A stretch of 64,000 bases of DNA from an uncultured Bacteroidales bacterium (GTDB taxonomy: Bacteria > Bacillota_I > Bacilli_A > RFN20 > CAG-826): contig CAVJMG010000001.1 in assembly GCA_963650805.1 (NCBI GenBank), positions 334,554 through 398,553 of the forward strand, read 5' to 3'. Below the pieces are notes generated by a model, which saw nothing but the letters and a program-made list of their open reading frames with translations, was not told the DNA's origin and ran no database searches. This document shows, piece after piece, positions 854 through 9,896 of the stretch; positions within the stretch are counted from its first letter, which is position 1, and every line of letters begins with the position of its first letter. The position numbers and the translations under genes were made by a program.

Positions 854-879
854 AAAACCGGGCCTCTTAAAGCTCGGTT
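854..879. terminator. Candidate bidirectional stem-loop between convergent genes
   Basis: aaccgggc-ctcttaaa-gctcggtt forms an 8-bp stem with one G·U pair. It is flanked by T-rich runs on both strands. Confidence 0.3.
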
Positions 880-2471
880 TATTTAGTGTCGCCTTTTGAA
901 TCCGCATTCGCTTTGCGTTTATCCAAAGCCCTTTTAACCGCGGCTTTAAGAGAATCCCTTTCGAAATGCGACATGCCGGTAAAATACATGGAAACGCAGT
1001 AAATGGCCGTATAGGCAACGATGAGAAGGGCGAAATCCCAAAGCCCGTGGAATTCATAGAAAAGCAATAAAGGAATGCCGCAAGCAACGGGAATAAGGAG
1101 GCCTACGCTTATTCTCAAAATCTCGATCCAAAATCTGCCGATGTCCAAGTGAAGCTGTTTGGCGTAGATGATGTTCATGGCGAAATCGTTAAACAGGAAT
1201 ATCGTGATCGTTGTTCCCGCGGCGGCCCCGATGGCGCCCCACTTCATCGCCATGAAAATCGATATCGTGATGTTGAACGCAGCACCGATCAGATAAATTA
1301 TGCTGCGGCTCTGATGCTTGTTCTCGGCCCGTTGAATTTCAATGCCCAAATGCTGGATGACGTCTACGGTGATAGGCGCGATAAGCAGAATAATTATGTA
1401 ATAGGCGTCGGAATAGCCTTCGCCAGCCCACCGGAGGACGAAGTATTTCCCGAAGAAAACGAAGCCGGTGAAAACAAGCATTATCAATGGGTAAACGATT
1501 TTGGCGACCTTAATCATCAAATCGGAAAGTGACTTATCAATCTCTTCTTGCGGACGCCCACTATAGACAATACCGTTTACTTTAGGAACGAAGACGCTCG
1601 ATATAGCTGTGCCGAAGGTGATGTAGTACGTATTGATTTGGCTGCCTACACCATAGACCGCCACCGCTTCCGCGGTGACGACTTTCCCAAGGATGACTTT
1701 ATCGGCTTGCCAGTTCACTTGATCGATTAATTGGTTTATCGCGATAAAGAAGGAGAAGACGAATATTTCCTTGAGGAGGTGAAAATCAAAGCCCTTGAAG
1801 GAAAGGCGCATTTTCAGTTTATGGAACGAATAGAAAATGTTTATGGCGTCGACGAGCAAGGATAGTGTCAGCGTTACAACGACCATCCCAATGGATTTGT
1901 ATCCAAGGGCGAGGACCAAAACCATCGACAAAGGAGATAAGACGGATTTGATGATATTGACGGATTGGAGGAATATAAACCGCTCATGGGCGCTTATGTA
2001 AGAGGAGAAGACGCTCATCGGGAAAGAGACGGCGAGGTTAACGGTCATCAGAATGAAAAGGATGCGGGCAATGTCCTTTTGTTCATCCGTGTAAGTTTCA
2101 TTGAAGAAGATGTTCGCGTTAAACGAAAGAATCAATCCAGCGCCTAAGGCAACGAGCATGATGACAAAGAAAATAAGGAGATAGTGCCCATTTAAGGATG
2201 CGATTTTGCCATCCGTTTCTTCCTTATCGTCCTGGCATTTGGCCCTAGCGTAAAAGCGTATGTAAGAGGATTGCATTCCCATCGTCAAAAGGCTTAGATA
2301 GGAGATAATGGAATTCGATAGGTTATATAACCCATATTCGGCTTTCCCAAGTTTGGAAAGCATATATGGGGTGTAGGCAAAAGAGATCAGCGTGGACGCT
2401 GCAAGTTGGACGTATTGGAGTATGGCTCCTATTTTGCGATTTTGCGACCTATCAAACGAAATTCCACTCAT
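879..2471 (-). CDS. wzx: Wzx-type oligosaccharide flippase (MOP/polysaccharide biosynthesis protein family)
   Basis: 530 aa multi-pass membrane protein. The N-terminus (…QYVQLAASTLISFAYTPYMLSKLGKAEYGLYNLS…) is typical of Polysacc_synt flippases. It sits at the distal end of the glycan operon. Confidence 0.8.
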   Translation of the reverse strand: MSGISFDRSQNRKIGAILQYVQLAASTLISFAYTPYMLSKLGKAEYGLYNLSNSIISYLSLLTMGMQSSYIRFYARAKCQDDKEETDGKIASLNGHYLLIFFVIMLVALGAGLILSFNANIFFNETYTDEQKDIARILFILMTVNLAVSFPMSVFSSYISAHERFIFLQSVNIIKSVLSPLSMVLVLALGYKSIGMVVVTLTLSLLVDAINIFYSFHKLKMRLSFKGFDFHLLKEIFVFSFFIAINQLIDQVNWQADKVILGKVVTAEAVAVYGVGSQINTYYITFGTAISSVFVPKVNGIVYSGRPQEEIDKSLSDLMIKVAKIVYPLIMLVFTGFVFFGKYFVLRWAGEGYSDAYYIIILLIAPITVDVIQHLGIEIQRAENKHQSRSIIYLIGAAFNITISIFMAMKWGAIGAAAGTTITIFLFNDFAMNIIYAKQLHLDIGRFWIEILRISVGLLIPVACGIPLLLFYEFHGLWDFALLIVAYTAIYCVSMYFTGMSHFERDSLKAAVKRALDKRKANADSKGDTK

Positions 2472-2572
2472 GTAAAATTACCGGCCCTATTGTGGCAACT
2501 TGAATATCGTCTTTCAAGTCATAGACGAATCAGACCCGAATAACGGTTGACGCATTGAGAATACACGGCCTT

Positions 2573-3238
2573 TCACGGATTCAATTTTCCGTTTTTTAGT
2601 GCTTCATATACGCTCTTCAAATCCTTGTACTTAAGAGCCATGAAAGAGCCAAGCTTTTTATTGGATGACCCCGTCTCGTTCCAAAGATAGTAAAGGCCGT
2701 TCTTGAAGAAATAATTCCCATGAGCAAAAGAGTTTCGGATTCTCGCAAATAACGAATCTATCTCTGCCCCCTCTCCCTTTGAAAAGAAAATCACACGTTT
2801 TTGATGTGAAGCATATGCAAATTTAATCTCTTCGATTAGAGACTCCATCTCATTACTCCCCAAGCAATATTTATAGGTCGTTCCTTTTTCCAATCTTAAC
2901 GAACGGAGAATCTTCGTCTTGAGCCACTTGAAATCGTTGCTGCGAATAATGCCGTAATCCTTGAATTTCCTCGCCAATTCAGGCCCTGCGCTTGATGGGC
3001 AATTATCGACAAACCAAAGCAATAAATTCTTCTTCTCTTTTTCGCGTTTGGGAGAAGAGGTTCTGCGATAGTCTTTTTCAATCAGTTTCCTAAAGTTCTT
3101 TAACGCTTCGCTTTGTTTCTTCATCGTGTAACAGCTCCCTGCCTCAGTAAGATTATAGGCCATGAAATCTTGAACTCTTGTGTTTTCCCCGGGCTCAGTA
3201 AACAACGTGGTCTTTATGTCCGCTGATAGTTTCCTCAA
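2573..3238 (-). CDS. Hypothetical protein with a C-terminal Rx4H (HEPN-like) motif, paralogous to the C-terminus of 5218..5913
   Basis: C-terminal …ARIRNSFAHGNYFFKNGLYYLWNE… aligns with …LRHVRNSIAHARYSIIRGGNYYKFLFED… in the neighbouring gene. The RNxxxH motif is HEPN-like. Confidence 0.45.
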   Translation of the reverse strand: MRKLSADIKTTLFTEPGENTRVQDFMAYNLTEAGSCYTMKKQSEALKNFRKLIEKDYRRTSSPKREKEKKNLLLWFVDNCPSSAGPELARKFKDYGIIRSNDFKWLKTKILRSLRLEKGTTYKYCLGSNEMESLIEEIKFAYASHQKRVIFFSKGEGAEIDSLFARIRNSFAHGNYFFKNGLYYLWNETGSSNKKLGSFMALKYKDLKSVYEALKNGKLNP

Positions 3239-3283
3239 GCACGATGATGGCGCCCCCCATAAACAGCCTCGATCAAATAGCGT

Positions 3284-5047
3284 TTAATTTCCTGTTACGC
3301 CATTGCCCTCCCCTTCAGTTTTGGGCTCATTTGCAGACGGCGTCACATACCCTAACGTTTTCTTAAGTTCGGCCGCCATAAGTTCTTTCCTTTTCTCAAA
3401 GAACGTATCGAAATCCTTCAGTTCGGCAGAGACTCCATCCGGCATAAATTTGACCGTGTTGCCCCCTTTTATCCAATCAGCCAGCGTCGAATCGTTCTTT
3501 GATTCGTTAACCTGCCCCTGAAGCAGTTCGAGATTGGGAAGCTTGTTTCTCATCCATCTCCACCTCTCAATCGTTTCTTTGGAGAAACCCTTTCCTTTAA
3601 TGTTCTTATTTTCAAACCCAGCATATGGATGAACGTGGTCTTGGTGGAATACGGCCGCATCGACTTGAATTTCGGGATATAAAAGAGTCAGCAGCATGAA
3701 GGTGTAAGATCCCTTGTCATAATCAAAACATTTGCTGATGACGTCATCGGTTATCGCGAAGTTCAAATCGCCTGTAAGCCTTACGTCCTTGAAAAGTTCA
3801 ACGGAGAAGTTCTCTTTCTTGAAGTTTTGGATGTTCTGAACCGCTTTCCTCGTTTCGCCAATCGCCGTATTGCTTGCGACGCCGAAAATGTTCTTGATCT
3901 GAGCAATGATGAAATACTTCTTGAATTCAGCGATGTTCTTAGCGCTTAAGGAGCCACCTCTATACAAATAATAGGCAATGGGCATCAACGCATTGTAGGA
4001 CGTGATTGATTCATCGCTGAAACCGCATTTGACAAGGAAAGCCACCACGTCTAGTAATGCCGTCTTTATCCTTTCCCAGTTTTCGGACACTTTTAGGATA
4101 TTTGATTTCTTAAAAGATCCGATTTTCAAATTGATGGGCGCGTCCGTCAACGCAAGGCAAGCTCTCATGACAAAGTCGGTGTTAAAATCAAACTTGCCCC
4201 TTCTTCCGTTCATGGAGTTGATGAGATTTTCGATTTCCTCTCTCCCCCCTTGCCAATACGAAACGATTGTCGAAAACAGCAAGTCCGTCTTTGATAATGG
4301 GGTTCCAGAGGAATTCAATCTAACGAAAATGTTCAGAACGTCATCATAATCTGCTTCCTCAATCTCATAGAAGCTTAGTGCGCCTTCTTCCTTGTTTGTC
4401 AAAATCTTGTATAAAGATAGGATGTTCTTCCCAGCCCTACCATCCTCGTAGTTTTTGGCTGCGTAGGTGAAGATCGAATACTCATCGTCAAATCTGAATA
4501 TATCCTTAACCTTAAACCATTTCTTCGGGTTCTCGCCATATTCATCCGACGTCAAAAACTTGAATCTTTTCGTCTCGTCATCGTCAAGAATCTTGGCAGT
4601 CGGATCAATTGTGAGATTCATGTAGAGTTCTTTTTTAGGGAAGGAGCCGTCAAGGCCCCACCAGCAACGCGGGAGTTTGCGTGCAAGGCTTCCTTTGATG
4701 GCGATGTATAACGAAGACAATCTTTGTTGGCCATCCAAAACAATGTAATAGGATTCAAAGTCGGTGGTAATCGGCAAAGGAGCCTTTTTGTTGTCCTTAT
4801 TGTCTCTCTCGTGATAGTCACGAATAAACTCATAGAGGTTCAAAGCGGTATCATCGCTATTCAGCACCTTTTTTGAGGTTTTCCAAAACAGCAATGCGCC
4901 GACTGGGTAGCCCAAAATCAAAGAATCGAAGAGGTTCTCTACCTGCTCCTCTTTCCAGACGAACTTTCTTTGGATTTCCGGAAGATACATCCTTCCGGCT
5001 TCGATGTAATTAACCGCTTCTTTGATTGATAGTTTCTGATAGCCCAT
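3284..5047 (-). CDS. GmrSD-family DUF262 (ParB-like, DGQQR) + DUF1524 (His-Me/HNH-like) nuclease; putative type IV, modification-dependent restriction enzyme
   Basis: N-terminal LPEIQRKFVW and DGQQRLSSL motifs (DUF262). C-terminal FHQDHVHPYAGF motif (DUF1524). 587 aa. Confidence 0.85.
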   Translation of the reverse strand: MGYQKLSIKEAVNYIEAGRMYLPEIQRKFVWKEEQVENLFDSLILGYPVGALLFWKTSKKVLNSDDTALNLYEFIRDYHERDNKDNKKAPLPITTDFESYYIVLDGQQRLSSLYIAIKGSLARKLPRCWWGLDGSFPKKELYMNLTIDPTAKILDDDETKRFKFLTSDEYGENPKKWFKVKDIFRFDDEYSIFTYAAKNYEDGRAGKNILSLYKILTNKEEGALSFYEIEEADYDDVLNIFVRLNSSGTPLSKTDLLFSTIVSYWQGGREEIENLINSMNGRRGKFDFNTDFVMRACLALTDAPINLKIGSFKKSNILKVSENWERIKTALLDVVAFLVKCGFSDESITSYNALMPIAYYLYRGGSLSAKNIAEFKKYFIIAQIKNIFGVASNTAIGETRKAVQNIQNFKKENFSVELFKDVRLTGDLNFAITDDVISKCFDYDKGSYTFMLLTLLYPEIQVDAAVFHQDHVHPYAGFENKNIKGKGFSKETIERWRWMRNKLPNLELLQGQVNESKNDSTLADWIKGGNTVKFMPDGVSAELKDFDTFFEKRKELMAAELKKTLGYVTPSANEPKTEGEGNGVTGN

Positions 5048-5217
5048 ACGAAGCCTCCCGCGCGACGTCGAAACGCCCCTTTCGGCAGCCGAACGATTCC
5101 TTGTTAATTATATGTTAGAAGTGGGTGGCGAAGCGAAAATGCGCCAAATTCGCCCCCCATTCAGCAAAAAACTCGATGATTAGAGAATTTATATCGACCA
5201 CGGTTTCCTGCATTATT

Positions 5218-5913
5218 TCAATTAGAATGGCTTTCCGAAGACATCAGTATTTCTTTCCATTTTTTCAAGGTGGAATGGTTAATTACCATTTTAAAAGTAA
5301 TATCTTTCTCACCATCTCTGTCCTCAAATAGAAACTTGTAATAATTTCCTCCCCTTATGATTGAATAACGGGCGTGAGCTATAGAATTTCTGACATGCCT
5401 CAAAAGAGCCGTTAATGCGTTCTTTCTATCGCTGGAGCACACTCTGCAAACAAATCTTTTGCAAGATGAATTAATATCGGTACCATTCAAGGAAAATTTT
5501 CCTAAATCGTCATCCGTAATCTTGCCCGACACGAACGAAAACGTTTTATCTTTGCGAAAGCCTATCTTAAGCATTTCTTCTAAAAGCCTTGTGCTCGTTT
5601 CTAAATCGATTGGAAACGACAAGTCTGAGGACGTGTTGGGAGAAAGATATTCGTAAAATATGATGAGATCATGTACCGCCGAATCGTTAGATAACAAATA
5701 CGTTCTAATTGCGCTTTTCGAATTATCGAATTTTTCGCAACGCTTCTTACAGTTTGAGCATTTTTTCATATTTGGAGAAGAGCCTCGGAGAGGCTTGTGA
5801 ACGGAGCCGATAGAGTTCCGCGTCAGCAAACCCATTATAGTGTCGGCCCACCCCCACGTTACAAGTCCCTCTAGCTTCCCCGAGCAAAGTTTGTCATCGT
5901 CGTAGGTTGCCAA
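5218..5913 (-). CDS. Hypothetical Cys-rich (CxxC…CxxC) protein with a C-terminal Rx4H HEPN-like motif
   Basis: Contains CSNCKKRC and CRVCSS pairs. The C-terminal RHVRNSIAHARY is shared with 2573..3238. It is the first gene of the minus-strand triad. Confidence 0.45.
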   Translation of the reverse strand: MATYDDDKLCSGKLEGLVTWGWADTIMGLLTRNSIGSVHKPLRGSSPNMKKCSNCKKRCEKFDNSKSAIRTYLLSNDSAVHDLIIFYEYLSPNTSSDLSFPIDLETSTRLLEEMLKIGFRKDKTFSFVSGKITDDDLGKFSLNGTDINSSCKRFVCRVCSSDRKNALTALLRHVRNSIAHARYSIIRGGNYYKFLFEDRDGEKDITFKMVINHSTLKKWKEILMSSESHSN

Positions 5914-6005
5914 AGTGATTTCCGGCTTTAGGCGGCGAACCGAAATTTAATTTGGCGATGGTCTAAAATGGCGGTCCCCCGCCTTTTTTTGAAAGGAGTC
6001 AGATT

Positions 6006-6240
6006 ATGAACATAAAAGGAAGCGCCATCTCACCAAGGAGGACCGGAGAACCATCTGGGACTCCTTGGCGGAAGGGCAGAAGCTCAAAGAGATCGCCGCG
6101 CTGGTCGGGAAGGATGAGAGGACGGTCTCCAAGGAGATTATGAAGCGGAGGACGCCGAAAGCCAACGGGCGCGTCGTCTTCTCCGGGGACAAGGCCTCGG
6201 AGTGGAGGGAGCTGAAATCACACCTCTCCTTGCCCGTCCT
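6006..6240 (+). pseudogene. IS30-family transposase N-terminal HTH fragment (frameshifted and truncated)
   Basis: One frame reads …KRHLTKEDRRTIWDSLAEGQKLKEIAALVGKDERTVSKEIMKRR…, a classic IS30 N-terminal HTH. A strong RBS (AAAGGAG) and an ATG at 6006 lie in a different frame. Similarity is lost after about 60 codons. Confidence 0.5.
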
Positions 6241-6322
6241 CATTGTCGGCGGAGTGAGACTCTTTTCCATTGATAAAAGAGGCAGCAAACGGACGCTCCA
6301 TCTCACGGCATAGAAAAATCAC

Positions 6323-6778
6323 TTAGACATTTTCGTCATTTATCAACCTCAAAAAGGAATTCATGTATTCGAAGATTTCACCTTTGCGATTGTGTAACTC
6401 TTCCGCGACGCTTTTATTGAAATCGTGAGTTAAAACATTTCTTATGAATTTTGCCGAGCGCTTTCCCTTTCCGTTCCCGGATCCAAAAAGCCTTTCAATG
6501 GTTACATCCTCATATTTATATCCGAAAAAGGATAAAGCAGCCCTCGCTTCAGCTATATTTATCTTCAAATCCGCCGACTTTACTTCTTTTTCACATTTCA
6601 GCTTCTTATATTGTTTTAAAAGGTATTTATAGGCAATCTCGCAAATTTCAAATTGAGTTTTGAAATTGTTGATTTCTTCGATTCTTTCTTTGTTTCGAAC
6701 AAATTCATTCAACTTACGCAATTTTTCCTTCGTTTTCCTTTTTATCGAATTCTTTTCTTTATCCCGTATCTTTTTCAT
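6323..6778 (-). CDS. Hypothetical basic protein with a possible HEPN-like RNxxxH motif (FIRNVLTHDF)
   Basis: 151-aa ORF with a Lys-rich N-terminus. The Rx4H motif lies near the C-terminus. It is adjacent to the defence triad. Confidence 0.35.
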   Translation of the reverse strand: MKKIRDKEKNSIKRKTKEKLRKLNEFVRNKERIEEINNFKTQFEICEIAYKYLLKQYKKLKCEKEVKSADLKINIAEARAALSFFGYKYEDVTIERLFGSGNGKGKRSAKFIRNVLTHDFNKSVAEELHNRKGEIFEYMNSFLRLINDENV

Positions 6779-6950
6779 ATCGATTCATCCTTTGACACGA
6801 AGTCGTGAAAGAGTTTTGCGTTTCGGATCGACGTAGGCTTGCGTTTACGAAATTCTAGCGCAATCTCCGTATATGCAAAGCAAAAGTCGAGGGGGGTGCG
6901 GACAAAAACTGGACCTTCTTCAATATGATATCCCAAGCTCCTTCCTCCTA

Positions 6951-8290
6951 TCAATCATGCTTTTGTAGCCCAGTGATTCCTTGATTCTCTTTTCTATGAA
7001 CCGGGCCAGATATTCTTCCAGATAGGGGATGAACCCCTTGACCGTCATCGCCGATTGGCCTTCGTTGCAGAACATCTCGTTTTTGATTGTTCCGGAGAAC
7101 CCCCTCGCAGGCCGAATTGTCCGGCGAGCGGCCCTTCTTGGACATGGAGCGCACGAACCCGAATTCCCTCATCAGGCCTATCCAGCCGGGCCATCGGTAA
7201 TGGCATCCGCGATCGGAATAAACGATGCAGCGGGTCCCCATGAGGACTATGCCATGCACCTTGCGAAGCATGTCGTTCGCCAACTTGGCGTTCGGAGACG
7301 CCCCTATCGTCCACGCGATCGGCATTCCGTCGAAGCGGCCTATCGCGGGCGATAGGTAAACCTTGCCGTCGCCGAGGGCGAACTCGGTTATGTCCGCGGT
7401 CATCTTCTCAAAGGGCCTTTCCGCCGCGGAATCCCTTTGCAAAAGGTTCGGCGCCTCCGGGGAAAGCTCCCCTAGATACGATGAGCATTTCGCCCTCTTC
7501 TTCTCTTCGGAGAAAGCCCCAGCTCCTTCACGAGCCTTCTGACGACCTTTTCCGACAGCCGCCCGAATTCCTCCAGAAGGCATTGCCTCAGCCCCCGTAT
7601 CCGTAGACACCGCGGTTTTCCAGGAATTCCTGGCCGAGCCTCTCTTTGAGGCGGGCGTGTTCGTCCGGCTTCGATTTGGCTTTCTCCGCATAGAAATAAG
7701 GGCTTTTGCCCAAGGCCAGGGCCGAAAGCAGCCTGCGCAGCGGATATTTGCCTCTGAGGCATCAGCCATCGCTGCCTTTTCCTTTGCCTTCAATGGCTTT
7801 TGGCTGATGCGCGGGTCTTTTTAGGACTTTTATAGTCTCCGTGAGGATGCCGATCTGCATTTGCATCTCGTCCAGCCTTTTGGATATGTCGTCGCTTGGC
7901 GGTTCCGCCTTCTTCGAGGCTTTTGGCTTTTTGCTTCCCGTGAGCAGCCCTATTATACCCCCGGCCAGGTATTGCCTTTTCCACTTGCATATGGTTGCCC
8001 GCTGTGGCCGGTCGAGATCGCCACGTCCATCACCGGCTCATGACCGGCGGCCGCCCTTTCGACTGCCACGAGCTTTTGCTCCGGAGCCGGGCGGCCAGCT
8101 TCCGGAAAGACGCCGGAGCGCCCTTTTCTGGCGCGTTCCCTGCCTTCTTTTTGAGCCAAGTGTAGAACGTCGCCCTCGTGCAAATGGGGATTTCCCTAGC
8201 GCCTTGGCGATGCTGCGGCATTTGCGGTAATACTTCAAAGCTTGAGTTTTCTGCTTTTCGTCGACCATAAACCTCCTCTCGGTTGATGGT
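6951..8290 (-). mobile_element. IS3-family insertion-sequence remnant (degraded orfA/orfB with several frame breaks)
   Basis: Fragments read …ATFYTWLKKK… (orfA-like) and …YSDRGCHYRWPGWIGLMREFGFVRSMSKKGRSPDNSACEGV… (orfB DDE core). By eye this region is about 60% GC against about 45% in the flanks. Confidence 0.6.
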
Positions 8291-8330
8291 CCAGTTTTTT
8301 GTCCGCGGTCCCCTCCCCAAAAGTCAAATT

Positions 8331-9419
8331 TCATCTCGTTTTTAAAAGGATTTCAAATTTTACAAATTGTTTTTTCTTTAAGACTCGTTCTACTTCTTCG
8401 CTAATTTCGCTGCAGTAATTCTTAAAATATCTTTCTCTTAGATCGGACTCTAAAACAAAAATAGCTTTCCTTATACTCTTAGAGAGCTTACTTGTTCTCC
8501 AATAATTAGTTACACATTGCTGAAGGAAATACTCGTAAGCCCGCTGATCATAGGGCACGTCAAACAAAGGGAACTCTTTGAGGCACAACTCTGTGATATA
8601 AAAACTATCAATGCTTTTCAGATTACCTGTGCTTGTGACTGTAATGCCCTTTGGATTAAGTCGATAACCGTATACAACGTTCGATATACATTTATATTTG
8701 TAGCCTTTCGAGTACAAAATAAATGAAATCGGGGTATCTTCGAACCAGTAACCTTCCGGAAACTGAAAATGTTCGAGTGTTTCCGCCTTAAAAAGTTTGC
8801 CCCATGGATAGCCAGAAAGGCTCTTCGCCTCCAAGGCGTTAGACCGTTTATAGCCCCCCCAAGTCAGCTCAGTATCGCAATACCAGCCGCCTTGAACTAT
8901 GTCCATTGACTCATCGGCAGCCTTGGCGGCATTCATTAAGACATCTATTGCGTTTTCCGTAAGCACATCGTCAGAATCTAAGAACGTAACATACCTTCCT
9001 TTTATAGTTTTCATTGCAGCATTTCTCGCAGCAGAAAGCCCTTTATTACGTTGACAAATAATTTCAATTTTATTGGGGTATTTTCCCCATAAGAACGGAT
9101 AATTTCTAAAGTATTATCGGTTGACCCATCGTTAACAGCAATAATCAAATAAGAGTATTTTGTTTTTTTGATTTACAGCAGACTCCAAACACTGGCCAAT
9201 ATATTTGCCAACATTATAGGCCGGAATAATAATTACAAGGTCGTATTGTATAGAAAGAGCATTTTGACCAACGCAAGTTGTGGAGGGATCTTTATGAGCC
9301 GATAATAAAATGGTTTTAGCTTTTTTGGCAGTCATCCTTGTACACCAGTTAAAAAAGGGCAGCCATTTCCTTATCAAAGATTTTAAAAGCTTTTTCATAT
9401 AGTTTGCTCCTTCAACCAA
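8331..9419 (-). pseudogene. GT2 glycosyltransferase interrupted by a +1 frameshift in an A7/T7 homopolymer (9163-9169)
   Basis: The N-terminal piece is …IIIPAYNVGKYIGQCLESAVNQ. The shifted frame continues …KYSYLIIAVNDGSTDNTLEIIRSY… and then MKTIKGRYVTFLDSDD…. One fewer A would restore a canonical GT2 protein. Confidence 0.7.
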
Positions 9420-9480: not shown

Positions 9481-9896
9481 CGGATAGCGTTCCGTTTCTG
9501 TAGGCGATCCCCGCAATCAAATCGTCCAAATTATAGTACCCCGAACTCTGTCCCGGCGATGATTTTCTTCACCCCGCATCCCATCTCGTAGGTGTCGAGG
9601 GTGCCGTGAAATGATTTGCCGTACTTCCCCCGGTCCGTCCGCGATGAGATAGTTTTGCCCGCATCGAAAGCGAAGGTAAAACGACGGACGAAGAAAGAAG
9701 CGCGGCGTCGGCCCTCTCGAGCCATTCCGCGACGAAGGCGGGCGCCGCCTCCTCGGCGCTCTTCACCATTTTGTCCAGCCAGCTGGACTCTTGTGCTAAA
9801 ATCTTCACGGAAGTTCCCCTCCCATTATCTTTAGGGACTTAATTGCGGGACTTCCTTTTTCTTACCGCCACCTACATTTGCGGAACGCTACCGCTA
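9481..9896. mobile_element. About 415-bp GC-rich non-coding element bounded by imperfect terminal inverted repeats of about 24 bp (MITE- or IS-remnant-like)
   Basis: 9481-9508 cggatagcgttccgtttctgtaggcgat versus the reverse complement of 9866-9896 (…cctacatttgcggaacgctaccg…). The interior holds only short GC-rich ORFs. Confidence 0.35.

Follow-up and report, generated by a model that had tools for sequence, protein, structure and literature searches.

Organisation of the locus

The window analysed here is a stretch of 64,000 nucleotides (nt) of contig CAVJMG010000001.1 (positions 334,554 to 398,553, forward strand) in GenBank assembly GCA_963650805.1, from an uncultured Bacteroidales bacterium. 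Near one end of it, three minus-strand genes lie together in a polysaccharide locus: a central gene, here called brxU, whose product resembles the restriction enzyme BrxU, and two smaller genes on either side, which we call p1 (downstream) and p3 (upstream). All three are in the same orientation as the surrounding polysaccharide genes, and are separated by spacers of 170 and 159 nt. A first-pass annotation, made by reading the sequence, had described this triad as a defence islet in which a GmrSD-type DUF262/DUF1524 nuclease is sandwiched between two HEPN-like paralogues, with a third such protein (p4) nearby. The four minus-strand open reading frames (ORFs) which it delimited are all present, as are the motifs which it quoted: VLDGQQR and QDHVHP in the central protein, RNSFAHGNY...NGLYYLW in p1, RNSIAHARY...GGNYYKFLF in p3 and the p4 motif given in Table 1. 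The coordinates stand, but the starts of p1 and p3 are likely to lie further inward than was first drawn, as indicated by alignments of homologs and by gene calls on the identical public contig.

Table 1. Genes and mobile-element remnants at the brxU locus, in window coordinates.
Feature	Position	Strand	Description
p1	2573..3124	-	183 amino acids (aa); GGGAG ribosome-binding site (RBS) 10 nt upstream; extendable to TTG at 3238
brxU-like gene	3284..5047	-	587 aa; GGGAGG RBS 8 nt upstream
p3	5218..5769	-	183 aa from MKKCSNC; alternative starts 5835 (205 aa) and 5913
p4	6323..6778	-	151-aa lysine-rich ORFan; contains FIRNVLTHDF
Truncated insertion sequence (IS) IS30-type transposase N-terminus	5993..6313	+	Helix-turn-helix only (HTH_38, E 1.3e-8, 34.9 bits against a cut-off of 27); GC content ~54%; between p4 and p3
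Degenerate IS3-family element	6889..8315	-	Terminal inverted repeats 6889-6918 and 8285-8315; transposase frames broken; GC content 55-59%
Wzx-type polysaccharide flippase	879..2471	-	Polysacc_synt E 5.7e-13, Polysacc_synt_3 E 1.9e-11; directly downstream of p1; edge of glycan locus
GT2 glycosyltransferase gene, split	8331..9419	-	ORFs 9132-9419 (N-terminus) and 8331-9014 (C-terminal part); borders the IS3 element

The central gene is predicted to encode an intact BrxU-type restriction enzyme

The central protein was found to match the PADLOC model HEC-05 over residues 1-566 (E 8.5e-167), the solved structure of BrxU (PDB 7P9K) over residues 15-527 (E 5.7e-75) and PHROG 17051 (E 8.5e-109). Its N-terminal DUF262 NTPase domain is recognised by Pfam (GmrSD_N, E 1.6e-33), and carries NLFDS as well as DGQQR at residues 105-109; D105 to R109 are invariant across 30 homologs. 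The C-terminal DUF1524 HNH domain contains DHVHP at residues 470-474, with D470, H471, N505 and N514 invariant among the 30, and GmrSD_C by itself scores below the Pfam threshold (E 0.045; 14.1 bits, cut-off 23). The central protein retains the conserved residue in all columns that do not vary among the 30 homologs. These matches bear out the identification of the centre as a GmrSD-type DUF262/DUF1524 nuclease.

The structure 7P9K is that of BrxU from Escherichia fergusonii pEFER, which shares with the central protein a length of 587 aa and the DUF262-linker-DUF1524 arrangement, and aligns with it end to end. Conserved between the two are NLFDS (RLFDS in 7P9K), VLDGQQR (identical in both), DHVHP (DHIYP, giving DH(V/I)(H/Y)P) and the HNH asparagines, with NKLPNLELLQG corresponding to NKLPNLQLLEG. 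HEC-05 is BrxU, which cuts DNA with 5-methylcytosine, 5-hydroxymethylcytosine (5hmC) or glucosyl-5hmC in a manner dependent on nucleoside triphosphates (NTPs), and which protects as a single gene (bioRxiv 10.1101/2024.01.29.577857; PMC10952713). By homology and motif conservation, the central protein is assigned as an intact BrxU/HEC-05-type GmrSD type IV (modification-dependent) restriction enzyme, and both NTP-stimulated cleavage of modified-cytosine DNA and single-gene protection against phage are predicted for it from homology. Unlike BrxU, the window gene is not beside a BREX system but sits in a Clostridia-type glycan locus, and its preference for modified cytosine is a prediction. We found no BREX genes in the window, which has no ORF longer than 732 aa and so neither PglX nor BrxC.

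An exhaustive HMMER search returned 6765 relatives of the central protein, 723 of them at E<1e-30, with 71% identity for the closest representative. Metagenome-assembled genomes of uncultured Clostridia and Christensenellaceae are the source of the nearest BrxU homologs.

The flanking proteins belong to two putative HEPN families

Sequence comparison assigns p3 to the pEK499_p136 family of HEPN proteins. It scores 29.4 bits against Pfam PF18736 (HEPN pEK499_p136), above the gathering cut-off of 26.6 (E 7.6e-7), and has 13 homologs at E<=0.001 among 5.8 billion clustered proteins (identity 34-64%), 12 of which carry a precomputed PF18736 hit. R149, N150, A153 and H154 of the RNSIAH motif, which lies in the C-terminal part, are invariant in the family alignment. 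The motif region also weakly matches DzbB in PADLOC (E 0.003), as do two of 12 family members, the best at 4e-4. At its homology-supported start, p3 is without a clear RBS. The N-terminal half of the protein contains conserved cysteines, first as CxxCxxxC near the N-terminus and then as SCKRFVCxxC before the HEPN motif; this cluster, which suggests a zinc-binding module, is missing from the p1 family.

The other flanking protein, p1, has no Pfam match, and in particular none to PF18736. We identified 41 homologs at 40-90% identity, a single one of which (P0037) has a precomputed PF18736 hit, and weak sub-threshold hits to HEPN_RiboL-PSP (PF18735) were observed in seven of 19 family members. 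The family shares an invariant R-x-x-x-A-H-x-N (RNSFAHGN in p1), followed by YYLWNE. An AlphaFold2 (AF2) model of p1 was obtained with a predicted local distance difference test score (pLDDT) of 90.5 and a predicted TM-score of 0.88; in it, RNSFAH lies at the C-terminal end of a helix (residues 121-134) and is followed by three beta strands. Anantharaman et al. 2013 (PMC3710099) likewise place the HEPN motif at a helix end, namely that of helix 3. The strands after the motif in the model recall the beta hairpin that follows the motif in Csx1. A profile search against solved structures gave no match for the p3 family and spurious matches only for the p1 family. Foldseek retrieved nothing similar to the p1 model from PDB or BFVD, and the HEPN fold of p1 is accordingly proposed from its sequence. 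We regard the p1 family as a putative sister family of the pEK499_p136 HEPN proteins, so far unannotated, and its recognition here as modestly new.

Compared as single sequences, p1 and p3 are only weakly similar (BLASTP, 26 aa at 38% identity, E 0.002 in a single comparison). The alignments of the two families match each other with an hhalign probability of 92% (E 6.3e-7) over 145 columns at ~18% identity, and a plain hidden Markov model (HMM) of each family matches the other at E 1e-8 to 1e-3. HEPN proteins are recognised by an Rx4-6H motif with a polar residue after the arginine (PMC3710099); here both families have an invariant R, A and H, and the p3 family an invariant N as well. The first-pass annotation had proposed a shared HEPN-like C-terminal block of about 45 aa. 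Profile searches did find HEPN similarity in the flanks, through PF18736 for p3 and the 92% hhalign match for p1; it was the extent of the likeness that had been understated. The likeness covers nearly the whole of both proteins, and at ~18% identity p1 and p3 are ancient paralogues, not the outcome of a local duplication. Each has relatives 62-64% identical in unrelated contexts while the two share only ~18% identity, from which we infer that they arrived separately. When all members of both families were scanned with PADLOC, they proved unrelated to HEC-08, PD-T4-2_B and the other known HEPN defence proteins, with weak matches to DzbB and RTasHEPN only.

The third HEPN protein that had been suspected nearby did not hold up. 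p4 has no match in Pfam, PADLOC, PHROG or NCBIfam, and its sole hit among the 5.8 billion proteins is itself. BLASTP comparison with p3 gave E 20 and with p1 E 0.32; against both flank families hhalign returned a probability of 0.2-0.3%, with only the 10-residue motif aligned, and a single-sequence AF2 model was unusable (pLDDT 52.8). On these comparisons p4 is an ORFan with a short motif match, neither demonstrably a HEPN protein nor demonstrably part of any function of the islet.

The triad is restricted to one lineage

On the BrxU side we sampled 80 loci from different GTDB species (28-48% identity), with 5 kb of flank each. No ORF like p1 or p3 was detected in any of them with the HMMs of the flank families (E<=1). 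Among 52 same-strand immediate neighbours of BrxU, no Pfam family occurred more than twice, and this BrxU clade is therefore without a conserved partner. The closest BrxU homolog, the representative at 71% identity, is flanked by a proteasome-like gene and by no HEPN gene. That proteasome-like gene (Ntn-hydrolase, PF00227; L108:34-681), which lies directly upstream of the BrxU homolog, is 56% identical (E 5e-78) to one on an unrelated contig (L006:1647-2255), 3.7 kb from a p3 homolog, and may be a recurring passenger of such islands.

From the other side, no DUF262 gene was found in any of ~12 distinct contexts of p1 and p3 homologs. The sole other triad is on a 4.3-kb Logan contig (L109) with 95.5% DNA identity to the window, L109:1-4288 corresponding to window 1192-5456. 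Its brxU has lost 4 nt from an (AG)n run (window ~4238-4241), which shifts the frame, and 1-nt deletions are present in the brxU-p1 spacer and in p1 (window ~2686), the latter shifting the frame of p1. Such deletions may reflect genuine decay, or else errors in the assembly of a contig built from short reads. Apart from this sister contig, the flanking genes are not conserved beside DUF262/DUF1524 genes, and no recurrent HEPN-GmrSD-HEPN adjacency was found in unrelated genomes. The view of the sandwich as a system yet to be named is thus not upheld.

The p3 homologs are found in varied company. One follows the gene for a 2594-aa TIR/LRR/TPR protein by 5 nt and precedes a DUF4365 nuclease gene, another lies right after an IS21-like istA/istB pair, and others are beside unannotated genes. 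Scans of sequence collections gave no locus of the p3 family in viral contigs and one short locus in metagenome contigs; for the p1 family, viral contigs held two loci.

A p3-family gene (184 aa, L007:6001-6555) was also observed between the halves of a split BREX pglX (L007:3517-7504), an arrangement present on four contigs from different sequencing runs (L007, L008, L009 and L010). The 824-aa N-terminal part (PADLOC PglX, E 7.8e-289) ends 9 nt before the start of the HEPN gene, and a 313-aa ORF beginning 7 nt after its stop corresponds to positions 876-1170 of the 1174 in the PglX profile (E 1.1e-126). This is a gene-within-a-gene arrangement, and a modestly new observation.

Members of the p1 family on six contigs (L022-L026 and L111) directly follow one or two genes for large serine recombinases at the ends of prophage-like elements, in the order holin, amidase, SHOCT, recombinase and p1-like gene; the genes beyond vary, and include a type I restriction-modification (R-M) system. 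The spot after the recombinases is a typical position of prophage-borne defence cargo. Another p1 homolog follows the gene for a 665-aa protein of unassigned family, near IS21 and a recombinase. On L017-L021 (~2127-5786), a conserved four-gene cluster is found just upstream of the p1 homolog, encoding a 289-aa Zn-ribbon protein, a 294-aa protein, a 394-aa adenylosuccinate-synthetase-like (purA-like) protein and a 194-aa protein. No PADLOC model matches this cluster; it may represent an uncharacterised module for defence or for the modification of nucleotides.

An accreted islet and its alternatives

We consider it moderately probable that the triad is a lineage-specific, accreted defence islet in a decaying polysaccharide locus, made up of three independently acquired single-gene modules. 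In the central enzyme, DUF262 would bind and hydrolyse NTPs and the DUF1524 HNH domain would cut invading modified-cytosine DNA, with no partner needed. For p1 and p3, metal-independent endoribonuclease activity is predicted from family and motif, and each would most likely be a stand-alone RNase toxin acting through the invariant Arg and His of R-N-x-x-A-H; their activation during infection may arrest the cell (abortive infection). Their place beside brxU would reflect a general habit of this HEPN family, whose genes tend to settle next to or within other defence genes and at mobile-element termini, while p4 and the IS30 and IS3 remnants would be bystanders.

Several observations weigh against this interpretation. 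The three genes are co-oriented with no terminator predicted between them, so that co-transcription is possible, and the order p3-brxU-p1-wzx is kept in the sister contig. Elsewhere genes of this HEPN family sit tightly within defence operons, 5-10 nt from their neighbours, which leaves room for functional coupling, and PD-T4-2 is a validated two-gene defence system of a DUF262 and a HEPN (PF18735) protein (Vassallo et al. 2022, as summarised in PMC10952713). Further, no experimentally characterised member of the pEK499_p136 family, and no biochemical data on it, were found in the literature searched, and the p1 model, confident as it is, has no Foldseek match at E<0.1 in PDB or BFVD.

Some of these points would suit a single system in which the HEPN RNases guard or back up BrxU, after the PrrC-EcoprrI paradigm. 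The RNases would be latent as long as BrxU is intact, and would cut host RNA if an IPI*-like inhibitor disabled BrxU or if restriction failed. Shared strand, compactness and the kept gene order speak for such an arrangement, as do PD-T4-2, the family member inside the split pglX, and the pEK499_p136 HEPN genes in R-M and Pgl operons, for which a second-line suicide rationale has been given (PMC3710099). We nevertheless judge it an unlikely reading of the locus, because co-occurrence is lacking in the 80 BrxU loci and in the ~12 independent p1/p3 contexts, the ancestries of p1 and p3 are separate, the genes stand some 160-170 nt apart and do not overlap, and BrxU/HEC-05 is self-sufficient. The frameshifts in brxU and p1 of the sister contig fit poorly with an addictive guard. 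Likeness to PD-T4-2 also does not extend to its profiles: the PD-T4-2_A model matches the central protein over 30 residues only (residues 23-52, E 0.0021), and PD-T4-2_B gave no hit at E<=1 for p1 or p3, nor for members of their families.

It may also be that p1 and p3 are not defence RNases but cargo or maintenance genes of mobile elements (e.g. addiction toxins or regulators moving together with recombinases and transposases), their adjacency to brxU being a by-product of the traffic in mobile DNA. The p1 homologs just behind large serine recombinases where a prophage or element ends and beside IS21, the p3 homolog behind istA/istB and the IS remnants adjoining the triad would all agree with this, and neither family matches a solved HEPN structure or is represented in PADLOC, save for the weak DzbB matches (E 4e-4 to 3e-3). 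Other homologs, however, are in bona fide defence operons (BREX; TIR/LRR with DUF4365) with 5-10 nt gaps, and the invariant R-N-x-x-A-H and the Pfam HEPN assignment indicate a nuclease. We think this explanation rather unlikely as a separate one; since cargo genes at prophage ends are commonly defence genes themselves, it overlaps with that of an accreted islet.

The surrounding glycan locus

The triad does lie inside a polysaccharide locus, as first described, with the flippase gene on one side and glycosyltransferase and nucleotide-sugar genes on the other. Beyond the islet on this second side, the genes encode GT2, Gly_transf_sug, a Wzy-like membrane protein, GT2, GT1, WecG/TagA, an epimerase, GDP-mannose 4,6-dehydratase and mannose-1-phosphate guanylyltransferase. 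p3 is set apart from the glycosyltransferase genes by the two IS remnants, with the ORFan p4 between these. Both remnants named in the first-pass annotation were recovered, the IS30 one through its HTH_38 match and the IS3 one through its inverted repeats and an rve domain (Pfam, E 3.2e-8) in ORF 6951-7793, among overlapping fragmented ORFs. The split GT2 gene is likely a pseudogene; its 227-aa piece matches Glycos_transf_2 at E 2e-4 over profile positions 77-131 only (Pfam).

Acquisition of the triad by transposition, which the first-pass annotation had suggested, is unsupported, since the IS remnants are confined to one side and no element brackets the triad. A composite-transposon origin was rejected on the same one-sidedness and on the lack of direct repeats bracketing the triad. 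At 41-46%, the GC content of the triad is like that of its glycan neighbours (35-45%), the IS elements (55-59%) being the compositional outliers. Beyond the split GT2 gene, a high-GC (~54%) stretch of ~400 bp bounded by 20-nt inverted repeats (9485-9504 and 9871-9890) may be what is left of a further small mobile element. Insertions are eroding the glycan locus.

In such degenerate surroundings (the split GT2 gene, the broken IS3 element and the truncated IS30 gene), the flanking ORFs or the whole islet might themselves be decaying remnants that have no current function. The 4-nt brxU and 1-nt p1 deletions of the sister contig and the lack of a clear RBS for p3 would be consistent with decay. 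Yet all three frames in the window are full length in comparison with their homologs and have their invariant residues intact, p1 and brxU have good RBSs, and the frameshifts of the sister contig could be short-read assembly errors. We therefore hold loss of function to be very improbable, and retain an islet of three intact modules as the preferred interpretation.

An exact 10-mer, ATGGGGGGCG, was noticed on the minus strand at 5151-5160 and 3251-3260, once in each spacer of the triad and nowhere else in the window, each copy starting a tiny ORF (MGGEFGAFSLRHPLLTYN and MGGAIIVLEETISGHKDHVVY). We rejected it as a regulatory or recombination site or a leader-peptide start. The flanks of the two copies are dissimilar, matches with <=1 mismatch number four against 3.4 expected, and neither tiny ORF is kept in the sister contig; the repeat is probably due to chance.

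Relation to known systems and significance

The first-pass annotation had not recognised the pairing as a named system, but it is not without precedent. The occurrence of pEK499_p136 HEPN genes in R-M and Pgl/BREX operons was described by Anantharaman et al. 2013 (PMC3710099), and PD-T4-2 joins a DUF262 to a HEPN protein (PMC10952713). Like members of the pEK499_p136 family, p3 and p1 are small stand-alone proteins encoded beside restriction or BREX-type genes, with an Rx4H motif and Asn after the Arg. They differ from the reported contexts in that the partner here is a type IV enzyme and not a classical R-M or Pgl operon, and p1, which the Pfam model misses, falls in its separate sister family. 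PD-T4-2 is similar in that a DUF262 NTPase protein is encoded beside a HEPN protein, and the sub-threshold PF18735 hits of the p1 family recall its HEPN component. As the system is summarised, its DUF262 protein has no DUF1524 and the HEPN protein is presumably the effector, whereas the central protein here has its own nuclease and its adjacency to the HEPN genes is not conserved. A relation to Dazbog (DzbAB) was likewise not borne out: the central protein gave no DzbA hit, and of the two flanks only p3 gave the weak match to DzbB. With PrrC-EcoprrI and RloC, which are HEPN anticodon nucleases linked to type I R-M systems, the locus shares the concept of a HEPN RNase that is encoded alongside a restriction enzyme and may serve as a suicide back-up (PMC3710099). 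PrrC and RloC have an ABC-ATPase domain, belong to other HEPN families and are linked to R-M in a conserved manner, whereas p1 and p3 are of ~183 aa, without an NTPase domain and without a conserved partner.

The central enzyme joins a characterised family, and the link of pEK499_p136 HEPN genes to restriction and BREX systems is already published. What the locus adds to the catalogue of defence islands is one BrxU-type gene and two HEPN genes; for the p1 family, structure prediction is confident, no relative has been solved and PADLOC contains no model. The evidence does not favour a dedicated HEPN-BrxU-HEPN machine. We hold it decidedly improbable that p1 and p3 are dedicated guards of BrxU, forming a lineage-restricted three-component unit of restriction with a double RNase fail-safe, and that the HEPN family is more broadly a portable add-on for unrelated defence systems. 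If this were true, such an add-on (to BrxU here, to the split PglX and to the giant TIR/LRR protein) would turn failure of the host system into abortive infection at the level of RNA. In the contexts collected, the HEPN family recurs next to or within other defence genes and where prophages end; if its general role turned out to be that of a plug-in RNase fail-safe, the family would offer a simple, testable case of layered immunity.

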